From: Alphaproteobacteria bacterium
Lineage (GTDB): Bacteria > Pseudomonadota > Alphaproteobacteria > RF32 > CAG-239
Direction: 5' to 3'
DNA length: 64,000 nt
NCBI GenBank assembly: GCA_017937705.1
Contig: JAGBDC010000016.1
Location: 27,518-91,517 of the forward strand
The number at the start of each line of letters is the position of its first letter. The first letter of the stretch is position 1. The notes beneath the pieces are model-generated. The model was not told the origin of the DNA. It searched no databases and saw only the letters and a list, made by a program, of their open reading frames with translations. The translations under genes and the position numbers were made by a program. Shown here one piece after another: positions 1-28,342 of this stretch.

Positions 1-3000
1 AGTTTACACTTCCTAAAGTTGATCCTGTTCCTCTTGCCTTTAACTGATCATAGTCATTGTATACCTCATCATAATTAAAGCTACTCCGATCAAAATAACA
101 ATATACTGTTGCATAACCTTCAAGTTCGCGAAAATGAACAGGGAATAAATTCCAGTAAACATCATCTTGTCCAATATCGGTGTCTAAAACTCCCAAGGAT
201 TCTGTCCAATGTGCTGCAGGATAAATGAAGCCAAGAACTGCTCCCCATCCTCCAAAGTTTTCTCTAGTACATCCGGTACTATCTTCTTGAAATTTTCCAC
301 AATAAGGAAGCACCATAGCCCTTAGCCAAGTACTTTTCTGAAATTCTAAAGGATCTATGTACCTCTCTCCTGTTACCGGATCAACATCAGCATAACTATT
401 TATGTTAAGATTTGGAACTATATCTAATTTACCATCTCCCTTGGGTATTGCTCTACCGGCAACTGCCATATTCCATCCGGCAGGTGTCAAAGTTATGGAT
501 TTTGCATATCCCGGAGGACATTGCGGAGTTGGAATAAATCCTGCGTATGGAGAAACTTCATTCCCGGCATTTTCTCCAACTTCTGTAGTAGGTATATCAA
601 CAGTATTAGGTGTCCAAGTAACATTTGGATCATAAGTAGTATCAACTACATAAATACCTTTATTAATAAAGTCAGGCAAAATATCGCTCAAACGTGCACC
701 ACCTCGAGTAGTAAGTTTAATATCATGCATTACTGAAGTATACGCAGGATTAACTTCATATCCGTCGTATGGCACATATTTTTTGGTTCCTCCTCCTAAT
801 GCATATCCTCCCTCATTACCAATATTGCTACTGCTCAATATATCACTCGGTTTATAGTGTGAAATAAATCTATCAGCAGCAATATATCCGACTGCATCAG
901 TTTCGCCATTCTCATATTGAGCATTTATTATAGTATTAGTAAGTTTTCTGTTGTTAGTTTCATCAACATTACTCTCTAATGCCATAGAACCACGGCGAAT
1001 ATAAACCGAACCGTTTTTAGAAAGACGATTTGAATTATTAACTAAGTCTGTTTGATATACCCCTTTACCACTATCAACTGTAAATACTTGAACTTTATCA
1101 GATCTATAATTATTAATTGCATATTCAACAGGGTCGTTTTGACTTGTATAAGTTGCATTAGGAGATCTAATTTGAAAAATACCAGTAGATGCATACACGG
1201 CAGCAGCAGCCCCATAATAGCCTGATCTGTTATTTTCATGATTATATCGTTTATATCCGTCATCATAAGATTTTCTCATATCAAAATTAGAATCATAAAT
1301 AGCCAATCCTCCGACAAAACGAGACGTCAGAGTTTGTGCTGACGGAATAATATCAACAATCGGATTTCCTGATGTTCCTGCAATAATAAAGCTAGAATCC
1401 GCCATATACACTCTTCCCCATGAGGTAGGACCATAGCCACCTCTATAATACTCATGTTTTCCGTCAGTAAAATAATCAGCATTATATCTATACTGATTCC
1501 AAAGCCAATTAGACATAAGATTTACTTGATGAGAAAACATATCTACAGTTTGCCAACCTAAATCGTTTTTATAAACTCTAAGCGTTTGTCCTTGAATAGA
1601 AACAGGAGCATTTGTCATATTTCCATTTTCATCAACAGTAGAAATGTTAACACCTTTTTCAGCACCTATTCTAACAATAGAATCTTCTGGAGAATCGGTA
1701 ACTTTATATGTTCTTGAAGCATCATCATAGTGTACTAAATATGCACTACCTGCGGAAATATCTACACCTCTTGCTCCGTCGAGGGCATCGGCGGTACTGA
1801 TAGAAACACCTCCGGGGATAACTCGTCCGGTATTGTCCGTTGTTTCCGTATCAGAAATAGTCATCATCGGAATTTCATTGGTACCAACAATAAAGCGGCC
1901 ACCATCTTGATCCATTTTCGCAACAGTATAAAAATCTGTATCATTTTCTGCTGTAGCAAAATCTTCAGGAGCAACACCACCACGCAAAGTTGATGCATCA
2001 ACATCAAGAGCTTTCAATTTACCCGTCAATAAAGTATCTTTAACAAAAGCAGCTCCATTAACTGATAATGCATAAAAACTTTCATTCATAGCATCCGGTT
2101 CAGGAGTATCTCCCGTCCATGCATATTCCTTATACTCTCCTTTATGAGCTTTGGCTACCCCATCATCTTTTTTAATAACAGTATACCATCTGTAATCTAC
2201 ATTTCCAGCAGTAGAATCTCTAAAAACATTCAAATGCCCATCACCAGCGCGGAATTTATCTTTATCAGCATACAATGTCTCCCCCTCCGGTTGAGCGGGG
2301 GTTGTCCCATTTGCAGGAACGGCAGATGTTCCAAAAGTCATACTTCCTGCAGATTTTACCGTTAATTTAGTTTTTCCGGCTCCGGGGTCTCCATAAACCA
2401 TCTCATCGGATGCAACTTTGAATACCGGTTTATCCGCACGCTTAGTAGTTATCGGCTTGGTACCTGTAGCAGGATCTAATGGACCTTCCACATTGGTTGT
2501 GGCAAAATATTTGATACCATCATCTTTCACCGTAAACAGAGAGTTCATAGCCTGTAAAGCACCTTCTACATAGGCACCACCACCTTTGGCAATGTATAAA
2601 GCTTTATCCAAGGTATTACCAAAACCGGCAGGATCAAGAGTATCCGCAGGAACATCTTCTTCACGGGTAGATGCAACATCGGCTCCTTTGACCATTCTAT
2701 CAACATTAGGATGCATAATGATTTGGTTTACAAGACGAATGTTTCTTGTATCTCCAACGTTATATCCCATAAATAAATCGGTTTCCATTGTGTTTAACTC
2801 ATCAGCGGCATCAGGTTCGTTTTTACGGTGCAGAACATCTTCATTAGCTAACCCTTGTGAAGAAATCGGCTGAACCGAAGAAACCACAAACGAGTTATCA
2901 ACTAATCCGCCGCCTAATTCAGATGTAGGTACACTCCAAATACCTTGAGCTCCCATAGCAACCTGCTCTGTTCCTTCCGTAGTAACATAACCACCATTAC

Positions 3001-4605: not shown

Positions 4606-5406
4606 ATGAATAATAAAAGCGATATATCTGTCAGTAACCTACTGTCAACTGAGGAAATAACCGCACTTTTAAGCGGACAGCAAAAAAAAGAAACAAATAA
4701 TATTTTATCCTTTTTTACCTCTTCGGAATATAAGAAACAATCTGATATCTACACACATAGAATCAACAAAAAATTGTTGGAAATATATCGTGTCGATGCA
4801 AACATCATACCGACTATCCCCTCTTTTGACAATAATGACTTTTTTATTGCTTTTTCAATAGAAAACGAAGAGCAATCAGGAAAAATTTTGCTGTCAAAAA
4901 CTTTTTGCTCAAACATAATAAATCTTGTTTTAGGCGGTAAAACACAGGGAAGTGATATAACCAGAACACCGTCTACAATTAAAATAATTGAAAATATTGT
5001 CAAAGTTTTTTGCGAAACATTAATTTCCTCAAATGCAAAAATAATCATGTACGAACAACCGTACAACATTTCCGGTATATGCTCCGAAAATTGCTTTTCA
5101 TTCACACTGTCTGAAGGCGGTATGTTTTGCTTAATATTTCCGGAAATAAAAACAAAAAATGATATACAATACGAGAATAACAATTCATTGAGTGTGGATA
5201 TACCACTAACAATAAGCGCTGTTGTTAAGCAATCTGAAGTATCATTGCAAAATCTGTCAACATGGAAAATCGGAGACTTTTTGCCAATGGGTATTGAAAA
5301 AAACGCAGAAATATCTATACTATGTGAAAACAAGCCGTTATTTAAAGCCGTTATGGGGCAAAAAAACAATAATATTGCAGTTAAAATAACCAAGAAAGAG
5401 AAATAA
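4606..5406 (+). CDS. FliM/FliN-family protein (flagellar switch or T3SS C-ring-like), with an N-terminal CheY-binding-like LSxEEIxALLSG peptide and a C-terminal SpoA (FliN) domain
   Basis: The track ORF starts at 4579 (TTG); an ATG at 4606 gives MNNKSDISVSNLLSTEEITALLSG. The C-terminal 70 aa (VDIPLTISAVVKQ...IAVKITK) match the FliN/SpoA pattern. Confidence 0.55.
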   Translation: MNNKSDISVSNLLSTEEITALLSGQQKKETNNILSFFTSSEYKKQSDIYTHRINKKLLEIYRVDANIIPTIPSFDNNDFFIAFSIENEEQSGKILLSKTFCSNIINLVLGGKTQGSDITRTPSTIKIIENIVKVFCETLISSNAKIIMYEQPYNISGICSENCFSFTLSEGGMFCLIFPEIKTKNDIQYENNNSLSVDIPLTISAVVKQSEVSLQNLSTWKIGDFLPMGIEKNAEISILCENKPLFKAVMGQKNNNIAVKITKKEK

Positions 5407-5407
5407 A

Positions 5408-5845
5408 ATGAACAATATCGAATTAGCAATCAATATAACTGTCATCATCCTTTTAGTTGCGACCATAATTTGCATTTGGCGTTTTAGCCGCAACTTGTCG
5501 GTTTTACGCAACAAACACGACAGTCTGCAAAATTTAGTATTAGCTCTCAACACCGCTGCAGATAAAGCCAACAACGCCATAAACGGATTGAAAGCTACAG
5601 TAAACGAAGCTTCTCTAAACGTTGATATGGCTATTGAAAAGGCCCAAATTGCCGAAGAAAAATTGCTAAAAACCACTCGCAATATTTCAAAAGAAGCCGA
5701 TTTTTCTTACACGCCATCTACTCCGCAAAATCGCTTGGTCAAAAATATTCAACAACAATTTGAGCCAAATTTTGAAGAAGACAACAATGAAGAAAAATCA
5801 GAATCTGAAATAGAATTATTAAAAGTTTTACGTTCCATAAGGTAG
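5408..5845 (+). CDS. Hypothetical single-TM coiled-coil protein with an acidic C-terminus
   Basis: Track ORF of 145 aa. The start overlaps the previous stop codon (TAAAATG). It has an N-terminal TM helix (ITVIILLVATIICIW) followed by heptad-like sequence. Confidence 0.45.
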   Translation: MNNIELAINITVIILLVATIICIWRFSRNLSVLRNKHDSLQNLVLALNTAADKANNAINGLKATVNEASLNVDMAIEKAQIAEEKLLKTTRNISKEADFSYTPSTPQNRLVKNIQQQFEPNFEEDNNEEKSESEIELLKVLRSIR

Positions 5846-20636: not shown

Positions 20637-21716
<1,080 letters not shown>

Positions 21717-21724
21717 TCGTTATA

Positions 21725-21788
21725 CCCCGCAGGTATAAGAGCGGCTTTTGCCGCTCAATTACCGCGGGGATTTTTTATTTTTTTTAAG
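21725..21788 (+). terminator. Nested hairpin plus U-run between gap and pgk (partial terminator or attenuator)
   Basis: The outer stem CCCCGC(a)G/CGCGGGG encloses GCGGC-uuuu-GCCGC and is followed by UUUUUUAUUUUUUUU. Confidence 0.5.
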
Positions 21789-21798
21789 GAAACAATAA

Positions 21799-23007
21799 AT
21801 GAATTATAAAACAATTAATGATTTGGGCGATTTGCATAATAAAGTTGTTATGCTCCGTGCCGATTTAAATGTTCCTATGGACGAAAACTTTAACGTTACA
21901 AATACTGCTCGTATTGACAGAACAGTTCCCACAATCAAAGAACTCATGAGCAAAGGCGCAAAAGTTGTGGTTATTTCCCACTTTGGTCGTCCGGAAGGCA
22001 AAGGCGATATGAAAAACTCTCTCTCTCATATTGTTAGCGATTTGGAAAAAGCTCTCGGTAAAAAAGTTGTTTTTGTAGAAGATTGCATCGGCGAAAAAGT
22101 TGAACAAGCAGTAAAATCTATGAGCAACGACGAAGTTTTATTACTTGAAAATTTACGTTTTTATAACGAAGAAAAGAAAGGTGATGAAACTTTTGCTAAA
22201 GAATTGGTAAAGGTTGCTGATTTTTATGTTTCTGATGCATTCTCAACTGCACATAGAGCTCATGCTTCAATGGTTGCTGCAGCAAAAGAGCGTCCGGCAT
22301 CTATGGGACGTTTAATGGAAGAAGAAGTAAAAGCTCTTGAAGGTGCTTTATCTAACCCGACACGTCCGTTAATCGCTATCGTCGGCGGTTCTAAAGTATC
22401 CACAAAGTTAGACTTATTAAACAACTTGGTAAAGAAAGTTGATAAGTTGGTAATTTCAGGCGGTATGGCTCATACATTTATGAAGGCCAAAGGGATTGAT
22501 ACGGTTAATGAGGCTAACTCATTAGTTCAAATGGATATGATTGAAACCGCAAAAGAAATTATGACTGTTGCACAAGCAAACAACTGTGAAATTGTTTTGC
22601 CGGAAGATGTTGTTGTTTCTAAAGAGTTCAAACCTAATGCAGAGCACAAAACCGTTTCGTTGAACGATATTCCTTCAGAAGGTTGGAGCTTGTTGGATGT
22701 TGGCGAAAAGACAATCGCTGCCATCAGTGAAAAACTTGATGAATGCAAAACTCTGGTCTGGAACGGACCTCTCGGTGTGTTTGAAATGAAACCTTTTGAT
22801 AATGCAACCAACAAAGTTGCAGAACATGCCGCAGAACTTACACAAGCAGGAAAATTAATGTCTGTTGCCGGTGGTGGTGACACTGTTTCTGCTTTAGAAA
22901 ATGCAGGTGTTGCAAATAAGTTTTCTTATATTTCAACAGCCGGTGGTGCTTTTCTTGAATGGATGGAAGGAAAAGAACTTCCCGGTGTAGCTGTTTTGAA
23001 AAAATAA
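21799..23007 (+). CDS. pgk: Phosphoglycerate kinase
   Basis: Protein of 402 aa, conserved across the whole length. Confidence 0.95.
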   Translation: MNYKTINDLGDLHNKVVMLRADLNVPMDENFNVTNTARIDRTVPTIKELMSKGAKVVVISHFGRPEGKGDMKNSLSHIVSDLEKALGKKVVFVEDCIGEKVEQAVKSMSNDEVLLLENLRFYNEEKKGDETFAKELVKVADFYVSDAFSTAHRAHASMVAAAKERPASMGRLMEEEVKALEGALSNPTRPLIAIVGGSKVSTKLDLLNNLVKKVDKLVISGGMAHTFMKAKGIDTVNEANSLVQMDMIETAKEIMTVAQANNCEIVLPEDVVVSKEFKPNAEHKTVSLNDIPSEGWSLLDVGEKTIAAISEKLDECKTLVWNGPLGVFEMKPFDNATNKVAEHAAELTQAGKLMSVAGGGDTVSALENAGVANKFSYISTAGGAFLEWMEGKELPGVAVLKK

Positions 23008-23077: not shown

Positions 23078-23539
23078 TTAGTTAGTGTAGCAATCAGCCA
23101 CAATTAACACACTATGGTCGAAAATACGCACCCAATACACGTTCACATACCAAACCCAATAATCGAGTGTTTCTTTCCATACAGGATTATCGTGCTTTGA
23201 CCATGCATCATAAACCTGCTCTGACGGGAACAATTTTTGCAACTCAGCCTTGAGCTTAAATTCATCCGGACGAGCCACACATTCTGAGGCCATTGGAAGA
23301 CGGTGAGCACATTCATCACTGAAGTCTTCAATCACATAATCGTGAGCTTTTACTTCTCGATAACGTCTCATTGCGTTGTCAGCCTCTCTCAACAAATCAA
23401 CAATTTTTCGTTGATTTTCACTTGAGAAGAAACGCGCTAACTCTGGCTCATTTGCAGCCACTAAATGACGATAGGCAACTCTGTTTGCACAAATCTTTCC
23501 CTTTTTTACGAACTTGTAGTTTTGAAAGTTTTTAATCAT
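23078..23539 (-). CDS. Hypothetical protein
   Basis: Track ORF of 153 aa. It has no recognisable domain and is Trp/Tyr-rich at the C-terminus. Confidence 0.4.
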   Translation of the reverse strand: MIKNFQNYKFVKKGKICANRVAYRHLVAANEPELARFFSSENQRKIVDLLREADNAMRRYREVKAHDYVIEDFSDECAHRLPMASECVARPDEFKLKAELQKLFPSEQVYDAWSKHDNPVWKETLDYWVWYVNVYWVRIFDHSVLIVADCYTN

Positions 23540-23640: not shown

Positions 23641-24042
23641 CTAGAGCTTAAACAGCATTCCGGCAGTCTCTTCATGACATCCCATAAACTGGACTTTGCC
23701 ACTACCAAGCTCATAAGCCTCCATGTTCTCAACTTTGTCGGCAGCTGTCCAGATAACGTTCTTATGAGAAATCTGGAAACCGCAATCACACTTCTTAAGC
23801 ATCATTCGAACACCGCTCAAGCGACTGCTTATAATCTTGATATCTTCAGGACTTAACAGCTTCTTCTCAAATATTTCGGCATAATCAACCGCCATAGAAG
23901 CAGAAAAATCCTCCAACATACCTTCCGTAAGCAAGCAACAATTTTCAGAAATTCGAATTGCTTTTACAACTTTTTCTTCGATAAAATCGACAGACTCTGT
24001 GTTATCCGTATAGACAAACAGAAATTTAAATTTTTCTTTCAT
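23641..24042 (-). CDS. Hypothetical protein
   Basis: Track ORF of 133 aa with no recognisable domain. Confidence 0.4.
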   Translation of the reverse strand: MKEKFKFLFVYTDNTESVDFIEEKVVKAIRISENCCLLTEGMLEDFSASMAVDYAEIFEKKLLSPEDIKIISSRLSGVRMMLKKCDCGFQISHKNVIWTAADKVENMEAYELGSGKVQFMGCHEETAGMLFKL

Positions 24043-24164: not shown

Positions 24165-24602
24165 TTATTCTGCTTTTTCAGCAGCTTCTGCAGCAGCTTT
24201 TTCAGCAGCTACACGAGCTTTATCTTTAGCACCTTTAGCATTAACATCTCTGTCAACCAATTCGATGATTGCCATTGGAGCCGCATCGCCATAGCGGATA
24301 CCTGCTTTTAATACACGTGTATAACCACCATTACGAGAGCTGTAACGTTCTGCCAAAGTAGAAAACAACTTAGAAACAACTTCTTCGTCGCGCAAAAAGG
24401 CCAAAGCCAAACGACGACTATTCAAATCACCTTTTTTAGCAAAGGTAATCATGTTGTCAGCAAAAGTTCTCAATTCTTTAGCACGTGGCAAAGTAATTTT
24501 GATTTGTTCATGATTCAACAATGCGCAAGTCAAGTTAGAGAACAAAGCTCTTCTTTGGCTGGTCGGCATATTAAATTTTCTATGTGCATCACCATGTCTC
24601 AT
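24165..24602 (-). CDS. rplQ: 50S ribosomal protein L17
   Basis: The conserved start is MRHGDAHRKFN. The track ORF carries a spurious 55-aa N-terminal extension up to 24767. Confidence 0.9.
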   Translation of the reverse strand: MRHGDAHRKFNMPTSQRRALFSNLTCALLNHEQIKITLPRAKELRTFADNMITFAKKGDLNSRRLALAFLRDEEVVSKLFSTLAERYSSRNGGYTRVLKAGIRYGDAAPMAIIELVDRDVNAKGAKDKARVAAEKAAAEAAEKAE

Positions 24603-24744
24603 GGCATTTTCCTTTCTTCTATAAACTGTGCTTTGACAGGCAAAGCGGATAAAACACCGGTCTTTACTACGGAGTCGCTTTGCGACCATACATAAAAACC
24701 CACTCTTTCGAAACGGCTTATAACACACAACTTTTTGAAAAGCA

Positions 24745-24776
24745 AGAAAAAACGTCACATTTTTCAATGTGACGCA
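24745..24776 (-). terminator. Intrinsic terminator of the small membrane-protein gene, upstream of the rplQ leader
   Basis: On the minus strand, CGUCACAUU-gaaaa-AUGUGACG followed by UUUUUUCU. Confidence 0.55.
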
Positions 24777-24793
24777 TTAAAGATTGTAAAAGC

Positions 24794-25090
24794 TTATTCT
24801 TTTTCAAGAGCCTCTTTATTAAGCTCATTATATTCTTTTAAGCATTTACGTGACTTTTTATAACAAGACCAAAGGCCTATATCACAAAAGATCATCAACA
24901 GCCCCATAAATCCTATACCCAATTTTGAGTAAAGCGGCATTGTAACCACAGGAGGTGTTACAATAGCATACACAATACCCGCACAACCTATTATGGTTAG
25001 AAGCAGAGCGGTCAAAAACGTTACCTTTTGATTTCTTACATTTGCGGCCATACGAGCGACAATGTTTTTTTCGAAATTTTTCATACGCAA
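24794..25090 (-). CDS. Small two-TM membrane protein, hypothetical
   Basis: Track ORF of 98 aa with two hydrophobic helices. Confidence 0.4.
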   Translation of the reverse strand: MRMKNFEKNIVARMAANVRNQKVTFLTALLLTIIGCAGIVYAIVTPPVVTMPLYSKLGIGFMGLLMIFCDIGLWSCYKKSRKCLKEYNELNKEALEKE

Positions 25091-25173
25091 AATGTTAGTT
25101 AATAATATTCTTTAGTGGACAAATGATAGCAAATTTGATTAAAAAGTCAATAAATCAAATCAGGAGAATACAA

Positions 25174-25611
25174 ATGAAATTGCTGATACAAAGAGTAAAA
25201 AAAGCTTCGGTTAATGTAAATAACGATACTGTCGGAAAAATAGAACAAGGGATTTTAATTTTTATCGGAGTTTGCAAAGAAGATACTAAAGAACAAGCCG
25301 ATTTTCTCGCACGTAAAGCTGCAAACTTACGAATTTTTGAAGATGAAAACGGAAAAATGAATTTGTCTGTTAAAGATATAAAAGGTGAAGCATTGGTTAT
25401 CTCTCAGTTTACTCTTGCCGGAGATTGTACCCGAGGAAACCGTCCCGGATTTGACAAAGCTGCACATCCCGATATTGCCAAACCAATGTATGAATATTTT
25501 TCGGAACAATTACGTAATGAAAATATAAAAGTTGAAAACGGAATTTTTCAAGCAGATATGCAAGTAAGTTTAATTAATGATGGTCCGGTTACTTTCATTT
25601 TGGAAAAATGA
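25174..25611 (+). CDS. dtd: D-aminoacyl-tRNA deacylase
   Basis: Start at MKLLIQRVKKASV. It carries the SQFTL motif and the ...NDGPVTF C-terminus. It is oriented opposite to the flanking genes. Confidence 0.85.
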   Translation: MKLLIQRVKKASVNVNNDTVGKIEQGILIFIGVCKEDTKEQADFLARKAANLRIFEDENGKMNLSVKDIKGEALVISQFTLAGDCTRGNRPGFDKAAHPDIAKPMYEYFSEQLRNENIKVENGIFQADMQVSLINDGPVTFILEK

Positions 25612-25626
25612 TAATCATACTCAAAT

Positions 25627-26043
25627 TTAATTACAAATTTTATACAATGCATTAATTATTGTTTTAACTTTTTTAAGGTTATTCTTGTTTTGCAAAAAAC
25701 AGATGATTTCTTGCCATTTTTCTGTTTCCGAATATATATTTTTGCTAATAACAGAATAGTTATCTCCTCGAGGGCTCATTAATTTTATTTTTTCAGGCAT
25801 ATTTTCATAAAAATAACCGACCGGAACACCTAAAACCACTGAAAAATCATATAATCTACTGGCACTTATTCGATTCGCCCCGTTTTCATATTTTTGTAAT
25901 TGCTGAAAACTAATATTGATATTTTGAGCCAATCTTTCCTGAGTTAATCCTAGTTCCAGTCTTCGCAACTTTATTCTGTTGCCCACATATACATCAATCG
26001 GATTCGGTCTTCCGTCTGCTTGTTTTCCACGATTCTGTTTCAT
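25627..26043 (-). CDS. XRE-family (Cro/C1-type HTH) transcriptional regulator
   Basis: LGLTQERLAQNINISFQQLQKYENGANRIS forms a helix-turn-helix. The likely start is the ATG at 26043, with an AAGAGG RBS 5 nt upstream. The track gives an upstream GTG start. Confidence 0.7.
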   Translation of the reverse strand: MKQNRGKQADGRPNPIDVYVGNRIKLRRLELGLTQERLAQNINISFQQLQKYENGANRISASRLYDFSVVLGVPVGYFYENMPEKIKLMSPRGDNYSVISKNIYSETEKWQEIICFLQNKNNLKKVKTIINALYKICN

Positions 26044-26061
26044 TCCCACCTCTTAAAAAAA

Positions 26062-26290
26062 AAGAAAAGTCACTTGATGAGAGTGACTGGGAGCTGAAAA
26101 CTACACAACAATAGTGCGACTTATTACCGCATGGCTATTAGGTCGCCTCCCAGTCATAAGACCAAAAGGCAACCAAGTTTCGTCTTGATTAGACGTGCTG
26201 TGAAAGGTTTTCAGACCTTAAAACGTTCATCACTCGTTTCAAAAAGAATCTATAAAATAAACTGATAAAAGTAAAGAAAAATAAAAATTG
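26062..26290 (-). ncRNA. Candidate structured leader RNA or sRNA of about 200 nt ending in an intrinsic terminator that abuts the RBS of the XRE gene
   Basis: On the minus strand there are local hairpins AAGGU-cugaaa-ACCUU and CGUCU-aauca-AGACG. A long-range stem CUGGGAGGCGACC...GUCGC...CUCCCAG is also present. The terminator is AGUCACU-cucauca-AGUGACU followed by UUUUCUUUUUUUUU. GC content is higher than the flanking DNA. Confidence 0.35.
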
Positions 26291-26295
26291 CCACC

Positions 26296-26333
26296 AAAAA
26301 AGCCTCTTTTCTAAGGAAAAGAGGCTTTTGCAA
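26296..26333 (-). terminator. rpoA intrinsic terminator (bidirectional)
   Basis: AAGCCUCUUUU-ccuua-GAAAAGAGGCUU, an 11-bp stem plus a U-run, placed 13 nt after the rpoA stop codon. Confidence 0.7.
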
Positions 26334-26345
26334 AAGATATATGTA

Positions 26346-27356
26346 TTAGAAATGATCATCTACTCTTTTAATCAATTCTTCAATATTCTCAGGTGGCCAT
26401 CCCGGGGTATCCATACCAAGGTGAATACCCATCTTAGCCAATACTTCTTTAATTTCATTCAAAGATTTACGACCGAAGTTTGGAGTTCTCAACATTTCAG
26501 CTTCTGTTTTTTGAACCAAATCACCGATATAAACAATATTATCGTTTTTGAGACAATTTGCAGAACGAACTGACAATTCGAGTTCTTCAACCTTTTTCAA
26601 CAAATTCTTGTTGAACGGTAATTCTTCTTTTTCTTCTTCCACTTCATTTTCCGGTTCATCGAAATTAATAAACGGTTTTAATTGATCTTGAAGAATACGA
26701 GCAGAGAAAGCTACTGCATCTTCAGGGGTAACAACACCGTTTGTTTCAACAACCAATGTCAATTTGTCATAGTCTGTAACTTGACCAACACGAGTATTAT
26801 CCACACGATAAGAAACACGTTTTACCGGAGAATAAATAGCATCAACAGCTATCAAACCGATAGGAGCATCTGCTGGCTTGTTCTGACTAGCAGGGACATA
26901 ACCTTTACCTGTGTTAACAGTCAATTCCATATTAATTTTAGCACCTGCATCAAGGTTACAAATAACCAAGTCAGGGTTCATGATTTCAACATCGTGACCG
27001 GTTTCAATCATAGATGCAGTAACCGCACAAGGACCTTCTGCTTTTAATGTCATTGTTCTTGTACCTTCGCTGTGAACAGCAACGGCCAAGCATTTAACAT
27101 TAAGCACAATGTCGGTTACATCTTCTCTAACACCGGGGATAACCGAAAATTCATGTAAAACACCGTCAATCTTAATTGCGGTAACTGCACCGCCTTGTAA
27201 AGAAGACAATAAAATTCTTCTCAATGCATTACCCAGAGTAAGACCGAAGCCTCTCTCCAAAGGTTCAACAACTATTTTAGCTTTGTTGCCGCCTTCGCTG
27301 GGAACAATTTCTAAATTAGTCGGTTTAATAAGTTCTTGCCAATTCTTTTGAATCAC
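26346..27356 (-). CDS. rpoA: DNA-directed RNA polymerase alpha subunit
   Basis: Protein of 336 aa with conserved N-terminal and C-terminal domains. Confidence 0.95.
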
Positions 27357-27849: not shown

Positions 27850-28218
27850 TTATTTCTTCTTATTGGCGACAGTTTTACGTTTACCCTTACGAGTACGAGC
27901 ATTTTGTTTTGTACTCTGTCCACGAACAGGTAAACCTTTACGATGTCTCAAACCTCTGTAACAACCAAGATCCATAAGTCTCTTGATGTTAACACCAACT
28001 TCACGACGCAATTCACCTTCTACGAGGTAATCACGGTCAATCACTTCACGTACTTTAGCAACGTCTTCATCAGACATATCGCCAACACGCACGTCTGGGT
28101 TGACTCCCGATTTTGCACAAATATCTTGAGCATTTTTTCTACCGATACCAAATATGTAAGTCAAAGCTATTTCAATCTTTTTGGCAGTCGGAATATTTAC
28201 ACCAGCTATACGAGCCAA
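27850..28218 (-). CDS. rpsM: 30S ribosomal protein S13
   Basis: Protein of 122 aa starting [10 protein letters not shown]. It follows adk directly, with no infA or rpmJ. Confidence 0.95.
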
Positions 28219-28342
28219 ATTTCATCTCCATTAATTAAAATATTAAACTCAAAAAGTTGATCACCACTTTTCAAAAGTTAGCCGGATTATATGCCAATAT
28301 TTGTTAGTGTCAACCATTATCTTTAAGCATTTATTAAAAAAA

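Follow-up and report, generated by a model that had tools for sequence, protein, structure and literature searches.

An rplQ gene separated from rpoA in a gut lineage of uncultured Alphaproteobacteria and its candidate L17-responsive leader RNA

The gene for ribosomal protein L17, rplQ, closes the classical alpha operon, whose order is rpsM-rpsK-rpsD-rpoA-rplQ in Escherichia coli and adk-rpsM-rpsK-rpoA-rplQ in Alphaproteobacteria. In E. coli, this operon is controlled by ribosomal protein S4 at the rpsM leader. A free-standing ribosomal protein gene is exemplified by rpsO, which encodes S15 and has its own promoter, a structured leader near the Shine-Dalgarno sequence, a terminator, and translational feedback. 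The present analysis concerns the rplQ gene and the RNA leader preceding it in a 64,000-nt stretch of DNA (the window) from an uncultured alphaproteobacterium of the CAG-239 lineage (assembly GCA_017937705.1, contig JAGBDC010000016.1, positions 27,518 to 91,517). In this window, rplQ lies 1.7 kb away from rpoA. The evidence makes it probable that rplQ is an autonomous unit with its own promoter, structured leader, and terminator, subject to feedback control by L17 through the leader.

The rpoA-rplQ pair belongs to the most frequent conserved gene clusters (PMC9514032). The closest described RNA is the L17-Actino-Proteobacteria leader, which was predicted by covariation in Actinobacteria and Proteobacteria and would regulate rplQ only (Eckert & Weinberg 2020, PMC7247131). 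It consists of a sequence-variable 5' hairpin and a 3' hairpin whose stem has 7 bp and which contains the near-invariant GGUACCUGAUACGGCC, and L17 was inferred as its ligand because rplQ is the only gene concerned (PMC7247131).

Separation of rplQ from rpoA

On the minus strand of the window, the genes follow in the order adk (29026-28343), rpsM, rpsK, rpoA (27356-26346), and rplQ (24602-24165), with 1,743 nt between the rpoA stop codon and the rplQ start codon (24602-24600). Protein families were assigned with Pfam and NCBIfam, and the relatives' loci used for comparison are labelled L001-L177. The features from rpoA to the end of rplQ are as follows, in the direction of rplQ transcription.

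26346-27356, minus: rpoA, an open reading frame (ORF) with which the truncated alpha operon adk-rpsM-rpsK-rpoA ends; Pfam domains RNA_pol_A_bac, RNA_pol_L, and RNA_pol_A_CTD
26296-26329, minus: predicted intrinsic terminator of rpoA, AAAAGCCUCUUUUC-CUUA-GAAAAGAGGCUUUU followed by a U-tract (-20.4 kcal/mol, z -3.8)
26055-26242, minus: highly conserved structured RNA of about 185 nt in the space from the rpoA terminator to the XRE gene, with a sub-threshold RF02221 match
25627-26043, minus: XRE-family helix-turn-helix (HTH) regulator, 138 aa; Pfam HTH_3, E 1e-13, score 51.5 vs cut-off 23
25174-25611, plus: dtd (D-aminoacyl-tRNA deacylase), antisense to rpoA and rplQ and convergent with the XRE gene; Tyr_Deacylase E 1e-59, score 201 vs 25, and TIGR00256 194 vs 101.5 bits
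24794-25084, minus: ORF for a 96-aa protein with two predicted transmembrane segments, without a family match in Pfam or NCBIfam
24746-24775, minus: predicted intrinsic terminator of the 96-aa gene, 10-bp stem GCGUCACAUU/AAUGUGACGU (24775-24752) followed by U6 (-13.8 kcal/mol, z -3.6)
24717-24745, minus: predicted sigma70-type rplQ promoter, -35 TTGCTT (24745-24740), 17-nt spacer, extended TG (24725-24724), and -10 TATAAG (24722-24717)
24603-24714, minus: rplQ leader of about 110 nt, on the coding strand directly 5' of the rplQ AUG
24165-24602, minus: rplQ, ribosomal protein L17 of 145 aa; Ribosomal_L17 E 6e-38, score 130 vs 27, and TIGR00059 140 vs 70 bits
24112-24143, minus: predicted intrinsic terminator of rplQ, 10-bp stem AAGAGGAGCA/UGUUCCUCUU followed by a U-run (-14.3 kcal/mol)

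A preliminary description of this DNA had placed the split at 24603-26345, which is the exact stop-to-start interval, and had recognised in it an XRE-type regulator, a convergent dtd on the opposite strand, and a small protein with two transmembrane segments; the HTH_3 and TIGR00256 matches and two hydrophobic segments bear these identities out. Its rpoA terminator, drawn as an 11-bp stem at about 26296-26333, was essentially right, the stem being a perfect 14-nt inverted repeat (26329-26316 / 26311-26298) that runs into U6, and the second terminator that it saw at about 24745-24776 is the one listed for the 96-aa gene.

Each of the three predicted terminators consists of a stable G+C-containing hairpin followed by a U-tract, as intrinsic terminators do. 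Equivalents of the rpoA terminator are found 3' of rpoA in L001, L004, L005, L083, and L085, and the terminator of the 96-aa gene is kept in L167 and L170. The rplQ promoter is likewise predicted, with a transcription start near 24710. Of 25 distinct relatives searched with the pattern TTG[ACT][ACT]N-16..18-TAnA[AT]N, 18 contain it, usually 111-121 nt 5' of the ATG, where the window's own background rate leads one to expect 0.086 per sequence of 110 nt. Near-variants, among them TTTACA-17-TATAAA and TTGCCA-17-TATAGT, occur in several of the other relatives.

The preliminary description had also proposed comparing the synteny of this junction in relatives, and the comparison shows how unusual the split is. 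Among the more distant alphaproteobacterial rpoA loci, rplQ follows rpoA by 2-289 nt in all 69 (median 48), and 49 additional metagenomic loci show spacings of 21-293 nt. Within the gut clade to which the window belongs, this junction varies greatly, and the following arrangements occur.

Gap of 213-257 nt: L006, L008, L099/L101, L001
Gap of 469-702 nt with small ORFs: L083-87, L005, L004/L103
Antisense dtd as the sole insert: L177, on more than 20 contigs
Insert of 4 kb plus dtd: L090
No rplQ within 5-6 kb of rpoA: L002, L003, L007, L009, L010
No rpoA within 2-5 kb 5' of rplQ: L088, L092-94, L096, L102

Unrelated neighbours of rplQ (tyrS, thioredoxin) and unrelated genes after rpoA are found in L002, L003, L007, L009, L010, L088, L092-L096, and L102, and several relatives retain the promoter and leader although the genes 5' of rplQ are unrelated. 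A dtd gene divergent from rplQ is kept in one subclade, with or without a nearby rpoA (L081, L089, L090, L176, L177). The relatives that have neither a recognisable promoter nor a U-tract terminator 3' of rpoA (L006, L008, L099/L101) are exactly those in which rplQ still adjoins rpoA, and they seem to represent the ancestral arrangement with co-transcription. Despite a short gap, the terminator and the promoter are both present in L001 and L083-87.

Two side observations concern the same junction. Small predicted membrane ORFs of about 63-96 aa recur between rpoA (or dtd) and rplQ across lineages (L005 7134-7370; L105 and L106, in the rpoA-rplQ gap; L176 4656-4919; window 24794-25084), with no obvious sequence similarity to one another. 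In several relatives, nested long hairpins with a palindromic repeat unit (e.g., AUGUACUUCUUUGUACAC or GUGUAGUUUUUCUACAC), reminiscent of repetitive extragenic palindromic (REP) elements, stand just 3' of rpoA (L177 about 5440-5690, minus strand; L006 7010-7100; L008 5140-5240).

The leader RNA and the control of rplQ

The leader is composed of three parts, listed here in window coordinates.

24659-24700, minus: helix P1 with the distal hairpin P1b, GUCGC-aaa-GCGAC (24686-24674); the RNAalifold structure equals the manual one
24630-24646, minus: hairpin P2, GCUUUG-CCUGU-CAAAGC, preceded by a conserved AUC (24650-24648; AUCC to 24647)
24603-24629, minus: linker and Shine-Dalgarno sequence GAAAGGA (24616-24610), about 13 nt 3' of P2; AGAGAAAAUGAAAGGAAA is kept in relatives

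A related sequence precedes rplQ in all of about 30 close relatives, most of which also have the promoter. P1 contains a near-invariant core composed of A-U, U.G, a bulged base (G24691), Y-R (U-A or C-G), A-U, and U.G. Both sides have changed in 10 of the 13 P1 pairs, and both U.G pairs are kept unchanged in 25-26 of the 27 sequences compared. Three types of leader share this core.

Type A, with P1b: window, L001, L004, L082-88, L091-93, L095, L099-101, L103, L104, L176
Type B, with a GAAG loop in place of the distal part: L005, L081, L086, L089, L090, L094, L096, L098, L177
Type C, a further variant: L006, L008, L102

In the MAFFT alignment of 14 type A leaders, 94.6% of cells are canonically paired, compared with 41-48% when the partners are slid, and both sides have changed in 14 of 24 pairs, compared with 2-8 in the controls. 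None of 500 shuffles of this alignment matched the observed pairing, double-sided changes, and covariation score, and RNAalifold independently returned the P1, P1b, and P2 fold. The same program recovers the P1 core from the type B leaders alone. When 27 distinct leaders are aligned to the covariance model R1, 96.5% of cells are paired (slid controls about 40%) and 17 of 23 pairs show double-sided changes, figures that lean towards the proposed structure because the model itself guided the alignment. Each close-relative locus has a single strong R1 match (E < 1e-4), always at the 5' end of rplQ; the rest of the window and of the roughly 1.45 Mb of loci searched has no strong match.

The preliminary description had thus correctly seen a structured leader, the RNA structure of which covaries in relatives, and a GUCGC-aaa-GCGAC hairpin, which proves to be the tip of a longer conserved helix. 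It had grasped the split and the leader locally, and had missed the lineage-wide variability, the leader motif with its older P2, and the RNA of about 185 nt.

P2 has a wider distribution than P1. Together with a preceding (A)AUC, it also stands 5' of rplQ in Azospirillum, Magnetospirillum, Pelagibius, Kiloniellaceae, Dongiaceae, and many metagenome-assembled genomes (MAGs), in which rplQ directly follows rpoA. In 27 such distant sequences, 93.7% of cells are paired, compared with 31-47% when slid, and all seven pairs show double-sided changes, a covariation figure inflated by the selection of the set by eye. The model R2 built from this set matches 58 loci at E < 0.01, all immediately 5' of rplQ on the coding strand and many of them outside the seed; otherwise, only antisense images of the same palindrome were hit in about 1.45 Mb. 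The P2 hairpin is older than the rpoA-rplQ split.

The leader resembles no catalogued RNA. At gathering thresholds, Rfam 15 gave no match in the whole window, and permissive scans of the region, the leader alone, 13 related loci, and one distant rpoA-rplQ spacer revealed nothing similar to it. Two other functions of the leader were considered and rejected. The reading frames at conserved AUGs in P1, judged by eye, are not conserved and are not preceded by a Shine-Dalgarno sequence, as a leader peptide would require. A transcription attenuator formed by P1 or P2 is disfavoured by the missing U-tract 3' of P2 and by the U-rich linker 3' of P1, which is not conserved.

Some further observations relate to leader sequences. 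L17 of L081 is 97% identical to that of the window, yet its leader is of type B and no small membrane ORF is present, while the window and L176 combine such an ORF with a type A leader. The leader type thus does not track L17 similarity, which suggests that the small ORF, the promoter, and the P1 domain are exchanged together. Another, different conserved sequence was noticed in the 70 nt 5' of rplQ in other Alphaproteobacteria. It comprises (G)CCCCAAGG(A/U)G, a variable hairpin, and (C/G)GACAAAG(C/U)A(U/A)AA, can also be written CCCCAAGGAG-hairpin-GGACAAAGYAUAAA, and may be another candidate class of L17 leader. It was found in the following loci.

L107, L109, L111, L122, L126-L128, L130, L135, L136, L138-L143, L146, L147, L149, L151, L152, L156, L157, L159, L160

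The preliminary description had proposed that rplQ is transcribed independently, and the rpoA terminator, the antisense dtd, the second terminator, the conserved promoter motif, and the rplQ terminator all point in this direction. Gene identities, conservation of the promoter motif, covariation of the leader, its specificity for rplQ, and the variable synteny are observed, whereas the transcription start, how efficiently the terminators act, and L17 binding with the ensuing repression are what we infer from sequence. The alpha operon would end at rpoA by a strong intrinsic terminator, and rplQ would be transcribed from its own sigma70-type promoter, TTGCTT-17-TGtTATAAG. When more L17 is made than 23S rRNA can take up, the surplus would attach to the P1 core of the leader and/or to P2 and would keep the ribosome from the nearby Shine-Dalgarno sequence or trap it there, as happens with other ribosomal protein leaders. 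Autoregulation by L17 is favoured because the motif occurs 5' of rplQ only, because the unit contains no gene besides rplQ, because wobble pairs and a bulge such as those of the core are typical of protein-binding sites, and because the Shine-Dalgarno sequence follows P2 so closely. Since rplQ would carry all its own signals, the rpoA-rplQ junction could accept other genes.

Several points weigh against this interpretation. The rplQ promoter and the terminators are predictions, and the last base of the -10 hexamer is G or A, not T, in many relatives. Hexamers ending in G or A are compatible with alphaproteobacterial promoters. The pairing statistics of the 27 leaders and of the distant P2 set carry the biases already given with them. 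Neither R1 nor R2 matches inside the 16S, 23S, and 5S genes of E. coli rrnB, so that mimicry of the L17 site on rRNA lacks support, a negative of limited weight because detectable rRNA similarity is usually lacking in ribosomal leaders (PMC2864571). Finally, P2 is also present where rplQ directly follows rpoA and may act there as an intercistronic element in processing or stability, not as an operator.

This last point underlies an alternative that we regard as unlikely, namely that most rplQ expression comes from transcripts that read through from rpoA or the membrane protein gene, and that the leader serves in RNA processing or stability instead of as an L17 operator. The many Alphaproteobacteria with P2 and with rplQ 100-300 nt after rpoA, presumably co-transcribed, are in keeping with it, as are the close relatives L006, L008, and L099, whose leader has no obvious promoter or terminator beside it. 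However, read-through would have to pass two strong predicted terminators and an antisense gene in the window, and it does not account for the promoter motif at a fixed distance in most relatives or for the promoter and leader kept beside unrelated upstream neighbours. Moreover, near-invariant U.G pairs and a bulge typify protein recognition and not a mere stabiliser.

Rather improbable is a leader that acts as a regulatory RNA for a ligand other than L17, such as another protein, a small molecule, or a small RNA (sRNA). The binding of L17 is deduced indirectly, the motif is unlike any known family, and no mimicry of E. coli rRNA was detected, all of which would suit such a ligand. Against this, the motif stands only 5' of rplQ, the sole gene in the unit, which is the same argument as that made for the published leader (PMC7247131), and undetectable rRNA similarity is usual for such leaders (PMC2864571).

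A history can be proposed in four steps. The ancestor would have had rpoA, a P2 leader, and rplQ on a single transcript. In the gut clade, the leader would have gained P1 while rplQ still adjoined rpoA (cf. L006, L008, L099), after which a terminator behind rpoA and a promoter before the leader would have separated both units (cf. L001). Insertions would then have been tolerated, first dtd alone (L177) and later the structured RNA and HTH gene on one side and the small membrane protein gene on the other (window), and relocation of the rplQ cassette would have been tolerated likewise. A more far-reaching proposal, which we advance tentatively and with less than even confidence, is that the leader is an undescribed structural class of L17-responsive leader; that P2 is ancient and widespread in Alphaproteobacteria; that the gain of a promoter and P1 made rplQ an autonomous cassette that repeatedly left rpoA; and that the sRNA-Xcc1-like RNA before the XRE gene, described below, is a new attenuator-type riboregulator of XRE genes.

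A clade in which the rpoA-rplQ link is broken in many ways shows what a gene needs in order to leave its operon: its own promoter, a terminator, and a feedback element. Only a few RNA motifs are associated with L17; the rplQ leader joins them as a well-supported candidate and is also a new candidate protein-binding RNA. The distribution of P2 suggests that feedback by L17 may be widespread and old in Alphaproteobacteria.

The inserted genes and the RNA upstream of the XRE gene

Judged by their homologues, the inserted genes are native, and the preliminary description's impression of foreign-looking genes does not hold. The XRE protein has XRE-family homologues of roughly 155 aa in Azospirillum, Magnetospirillum, Niveispirillum, and related MAGs, and these are ordinary Rhodospirillales-type regulators. 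Homologues of dtd form an unbroken series from 100% to 67% identity in MAGs, the few named ones being from Alphaproteobacteria or Rhodospirillales. For comparison, the window rpoA product is 85-91% identical to those of uncultured alphaproteobacterial MAGs from human, reindeer, and rumen guts and about 70-76% identical to those of Rhodospirillales and other Alphaproteobacteria. Phage and plasmid searches of the insert returned nothing beyond weak similarity to dtd, and a repeat search of the insert region found no flanking repeats.

At least 10 contigs, assembled independently from several samples and with different assemblers, encode the exact XRE protein, and the six of them compared in gene order agree as far as each extends: rpoA-HTH-dtd (reverse)-96 aa-rplQ-133 aa-153 aa-pgk (reverse). 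Two further contigs, which belong to a sister species, have the identical gene order and bring the independent assemblies with this arrangement to at least 12, with amino acid identities to the window of 100% for rpoA, 99% for L17, 96% for pgk, 94% for dtd, 71-72% for the HTH protein, and 66-69% for the 96-aa protein. The divergence of the last two may reflect either fast evolution or allele replacement. The 96-aa ORF is called as a gene in all contigs of this arrangement, its differences between the window and the sister species fall mostly on third codon positions (21/17/37 by position), and in L176 an 87-aa ORF with two transmembrane segments occupies the equivalent position. The XRE gene has the Shine-Dalgarno sequence AAGAGG directly 5' of its ATG start at 26043; the protein is on record with this start, whereas a version with a GTG start gave no match.

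The 1.7-kb insert could also be regarded as a foreign or mobile island of recent arrival that interrupted an otherwise intact operon, but this is very improbable. The G+C content of the insert is slightly lower than that of the flanks (0.29-0.35 vs 0.36-0.42), an XRE regulator with an sRNA-Xcc1-like RNA is typical cargo of mobile elements, and the HTH and 96-aa proteins have diverged between the sister species much more than their neighbours. The continuous homologue series, the retention of the block across species and of parts of it across genera, the many different forms of the split within the clade, and a locus with no integrase or insertion sequence all speak against an island. An assembly or binning artefact, in which a chimeric contig from the metagenome-derived genome of an uncultured organism would have joined the rpoA and rplQ regions, has next to no probability, given the same order on independent contigs and in the sister species.

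The RNA of about 185 nt 5' of the XRE gene is a second, independent lead, which could reveal the role of sRNA-Xcc1-like elements 5' of genes. It contains an sRNA-Xcc1-like three-way junction (26155-26077) and a terminator hairpin (26088-26068) with a U-run to 26055, and the hairpin ends just 5' of the Shine-Dalgarno sequence of the XRE gene. The match to Rfam sRNA-Xcc1 (RF02221) scores 36.2 bits in the window and 37.3 bits in L172/L173, below the gathering score of 53. The RNA is 98% identical in nucleotides between the window and L167, compared with 69-81% for the HTH gene and 72-75% for the 96-aa gene, and it also precedes a 48%-identical HTH gene in L172/L173. Compensatory changes in L172/L173 convert GCGAC/GUCGC into GCGGC/GCCGC and CGUCU/AGACG into CGUUU/AAGCG. 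The closing stem and the terminator overlap by 4 nt, which belong to the 3' strand of the former and the 5' strand of the latter, and the minimum free energy (MFE) fold contains the closing stem, not the terminator. An attenuator-type cis leader of the XRE gene, whose typical layout this is, and an independent sRNA appear equally possible. Copies of the RNA lie at the following sites.

L167, about 4800-4995
L170
L172, 2817-3001
L173

Among the neighbours, two ORFs of 133 aa (23641-24042) and 153 aa (23078-23539) follow rplQ on the minus strand; neither has a Pfam or NCBIfam match, and they are kept in the sister species at 92% and 76-85% identity, respectively. The 153-aa ORF also adjoins rplQ in L081 (61%) and L090 (26%). 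A scan of the window for tRNA and tmRNA found none. A sub-threshold Rfam match to Sarbecovirus-5UTR at the start of pgk (21674-21848, minus strand; 30 bits vs a gathering score of 150) is almost certainly spurious.

Comparison with known systems

The window shares with the classical alpha operon the genes, order, and strand up to rpoA, and rplQ is still downstream on the same strand. It differs in that rplQ does not stand immediately 3' of rpoA in one transcription unit; the gene is displaced by 1.7 kb, behind two predicted terminators, three genes (one of them antisense), and a structured RNA. Control by S4 of the E. coli type cannot apply, because rpsD is absent from the alpha operon in the window and its relatives. 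At the rpsM start (28186-28278, minus strand), the Rfam family Alpha_RBS (RF00140) gives a sub-threshold match of 27.5 bits, compared with a gathering score of 38. Such matches also occur in L172 (418-512) and L167 (2772-2864), with 27-31 bits overall. An S4-binding leader at rpsM was considered on this basis and is probably not present, as the match is mostly conserved rpsM coding sequence.

The RNA upstream of the XRE gene shares with sRNA-Xcc1 a 9-bp closing stem that encloses two hairpins, as judged by the cmscan alignment and the MFE fold, followed by a C/U-rich 3' tail, and a position just 5' of a gene for a nucleic-acid-binding protein. In the literature, copies of sRNA-Xcc1 are also found 5' of symE or ORF6N genes. 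The window RNA differs in its sub-threshold score, in being part of a longer conserved RNA with an overlapping terminator, and in its chromosomal location in Alphaproteobacteria, not in an integron or transposon.

As a single-gene ribosomal protein unit with its own promoter, leader, and terminator, and with proposed feedback, the rplQ unit of the window is comparable to rpsO. The protein is a different one, the RNA fold is unrelated, and the regulation of rplQ is at present a proposal.

The nearest counterpart is the published L17 leader. Both RNAs lie directly 5' of rplQ on the coding strand and consist of two hairpins, of which the conserved 3' one stands just before the ribosome binding site. 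There is no similarity in sequence or loops between them: GGUACCUGAUACGGCC has no match in the window leader even with two mismatches and is absent from 80 rpoA-centred loci. Whereas the 5' hairpin of the published leader is variable in sequence, P1 of the window is a covarying helix with its own conserved core. The conserved features of the window leader are this core, with its U.G pairs and bulge, and an AUC-flanked hairpin of 6-7 bp, and the leader is accompanied by its own promoter. Position and likely ligand agree and the layout is similar, but fold and sequence differ, so that the window leader would be best described as a structural variant of the L17 leader and not as a member of the published family.

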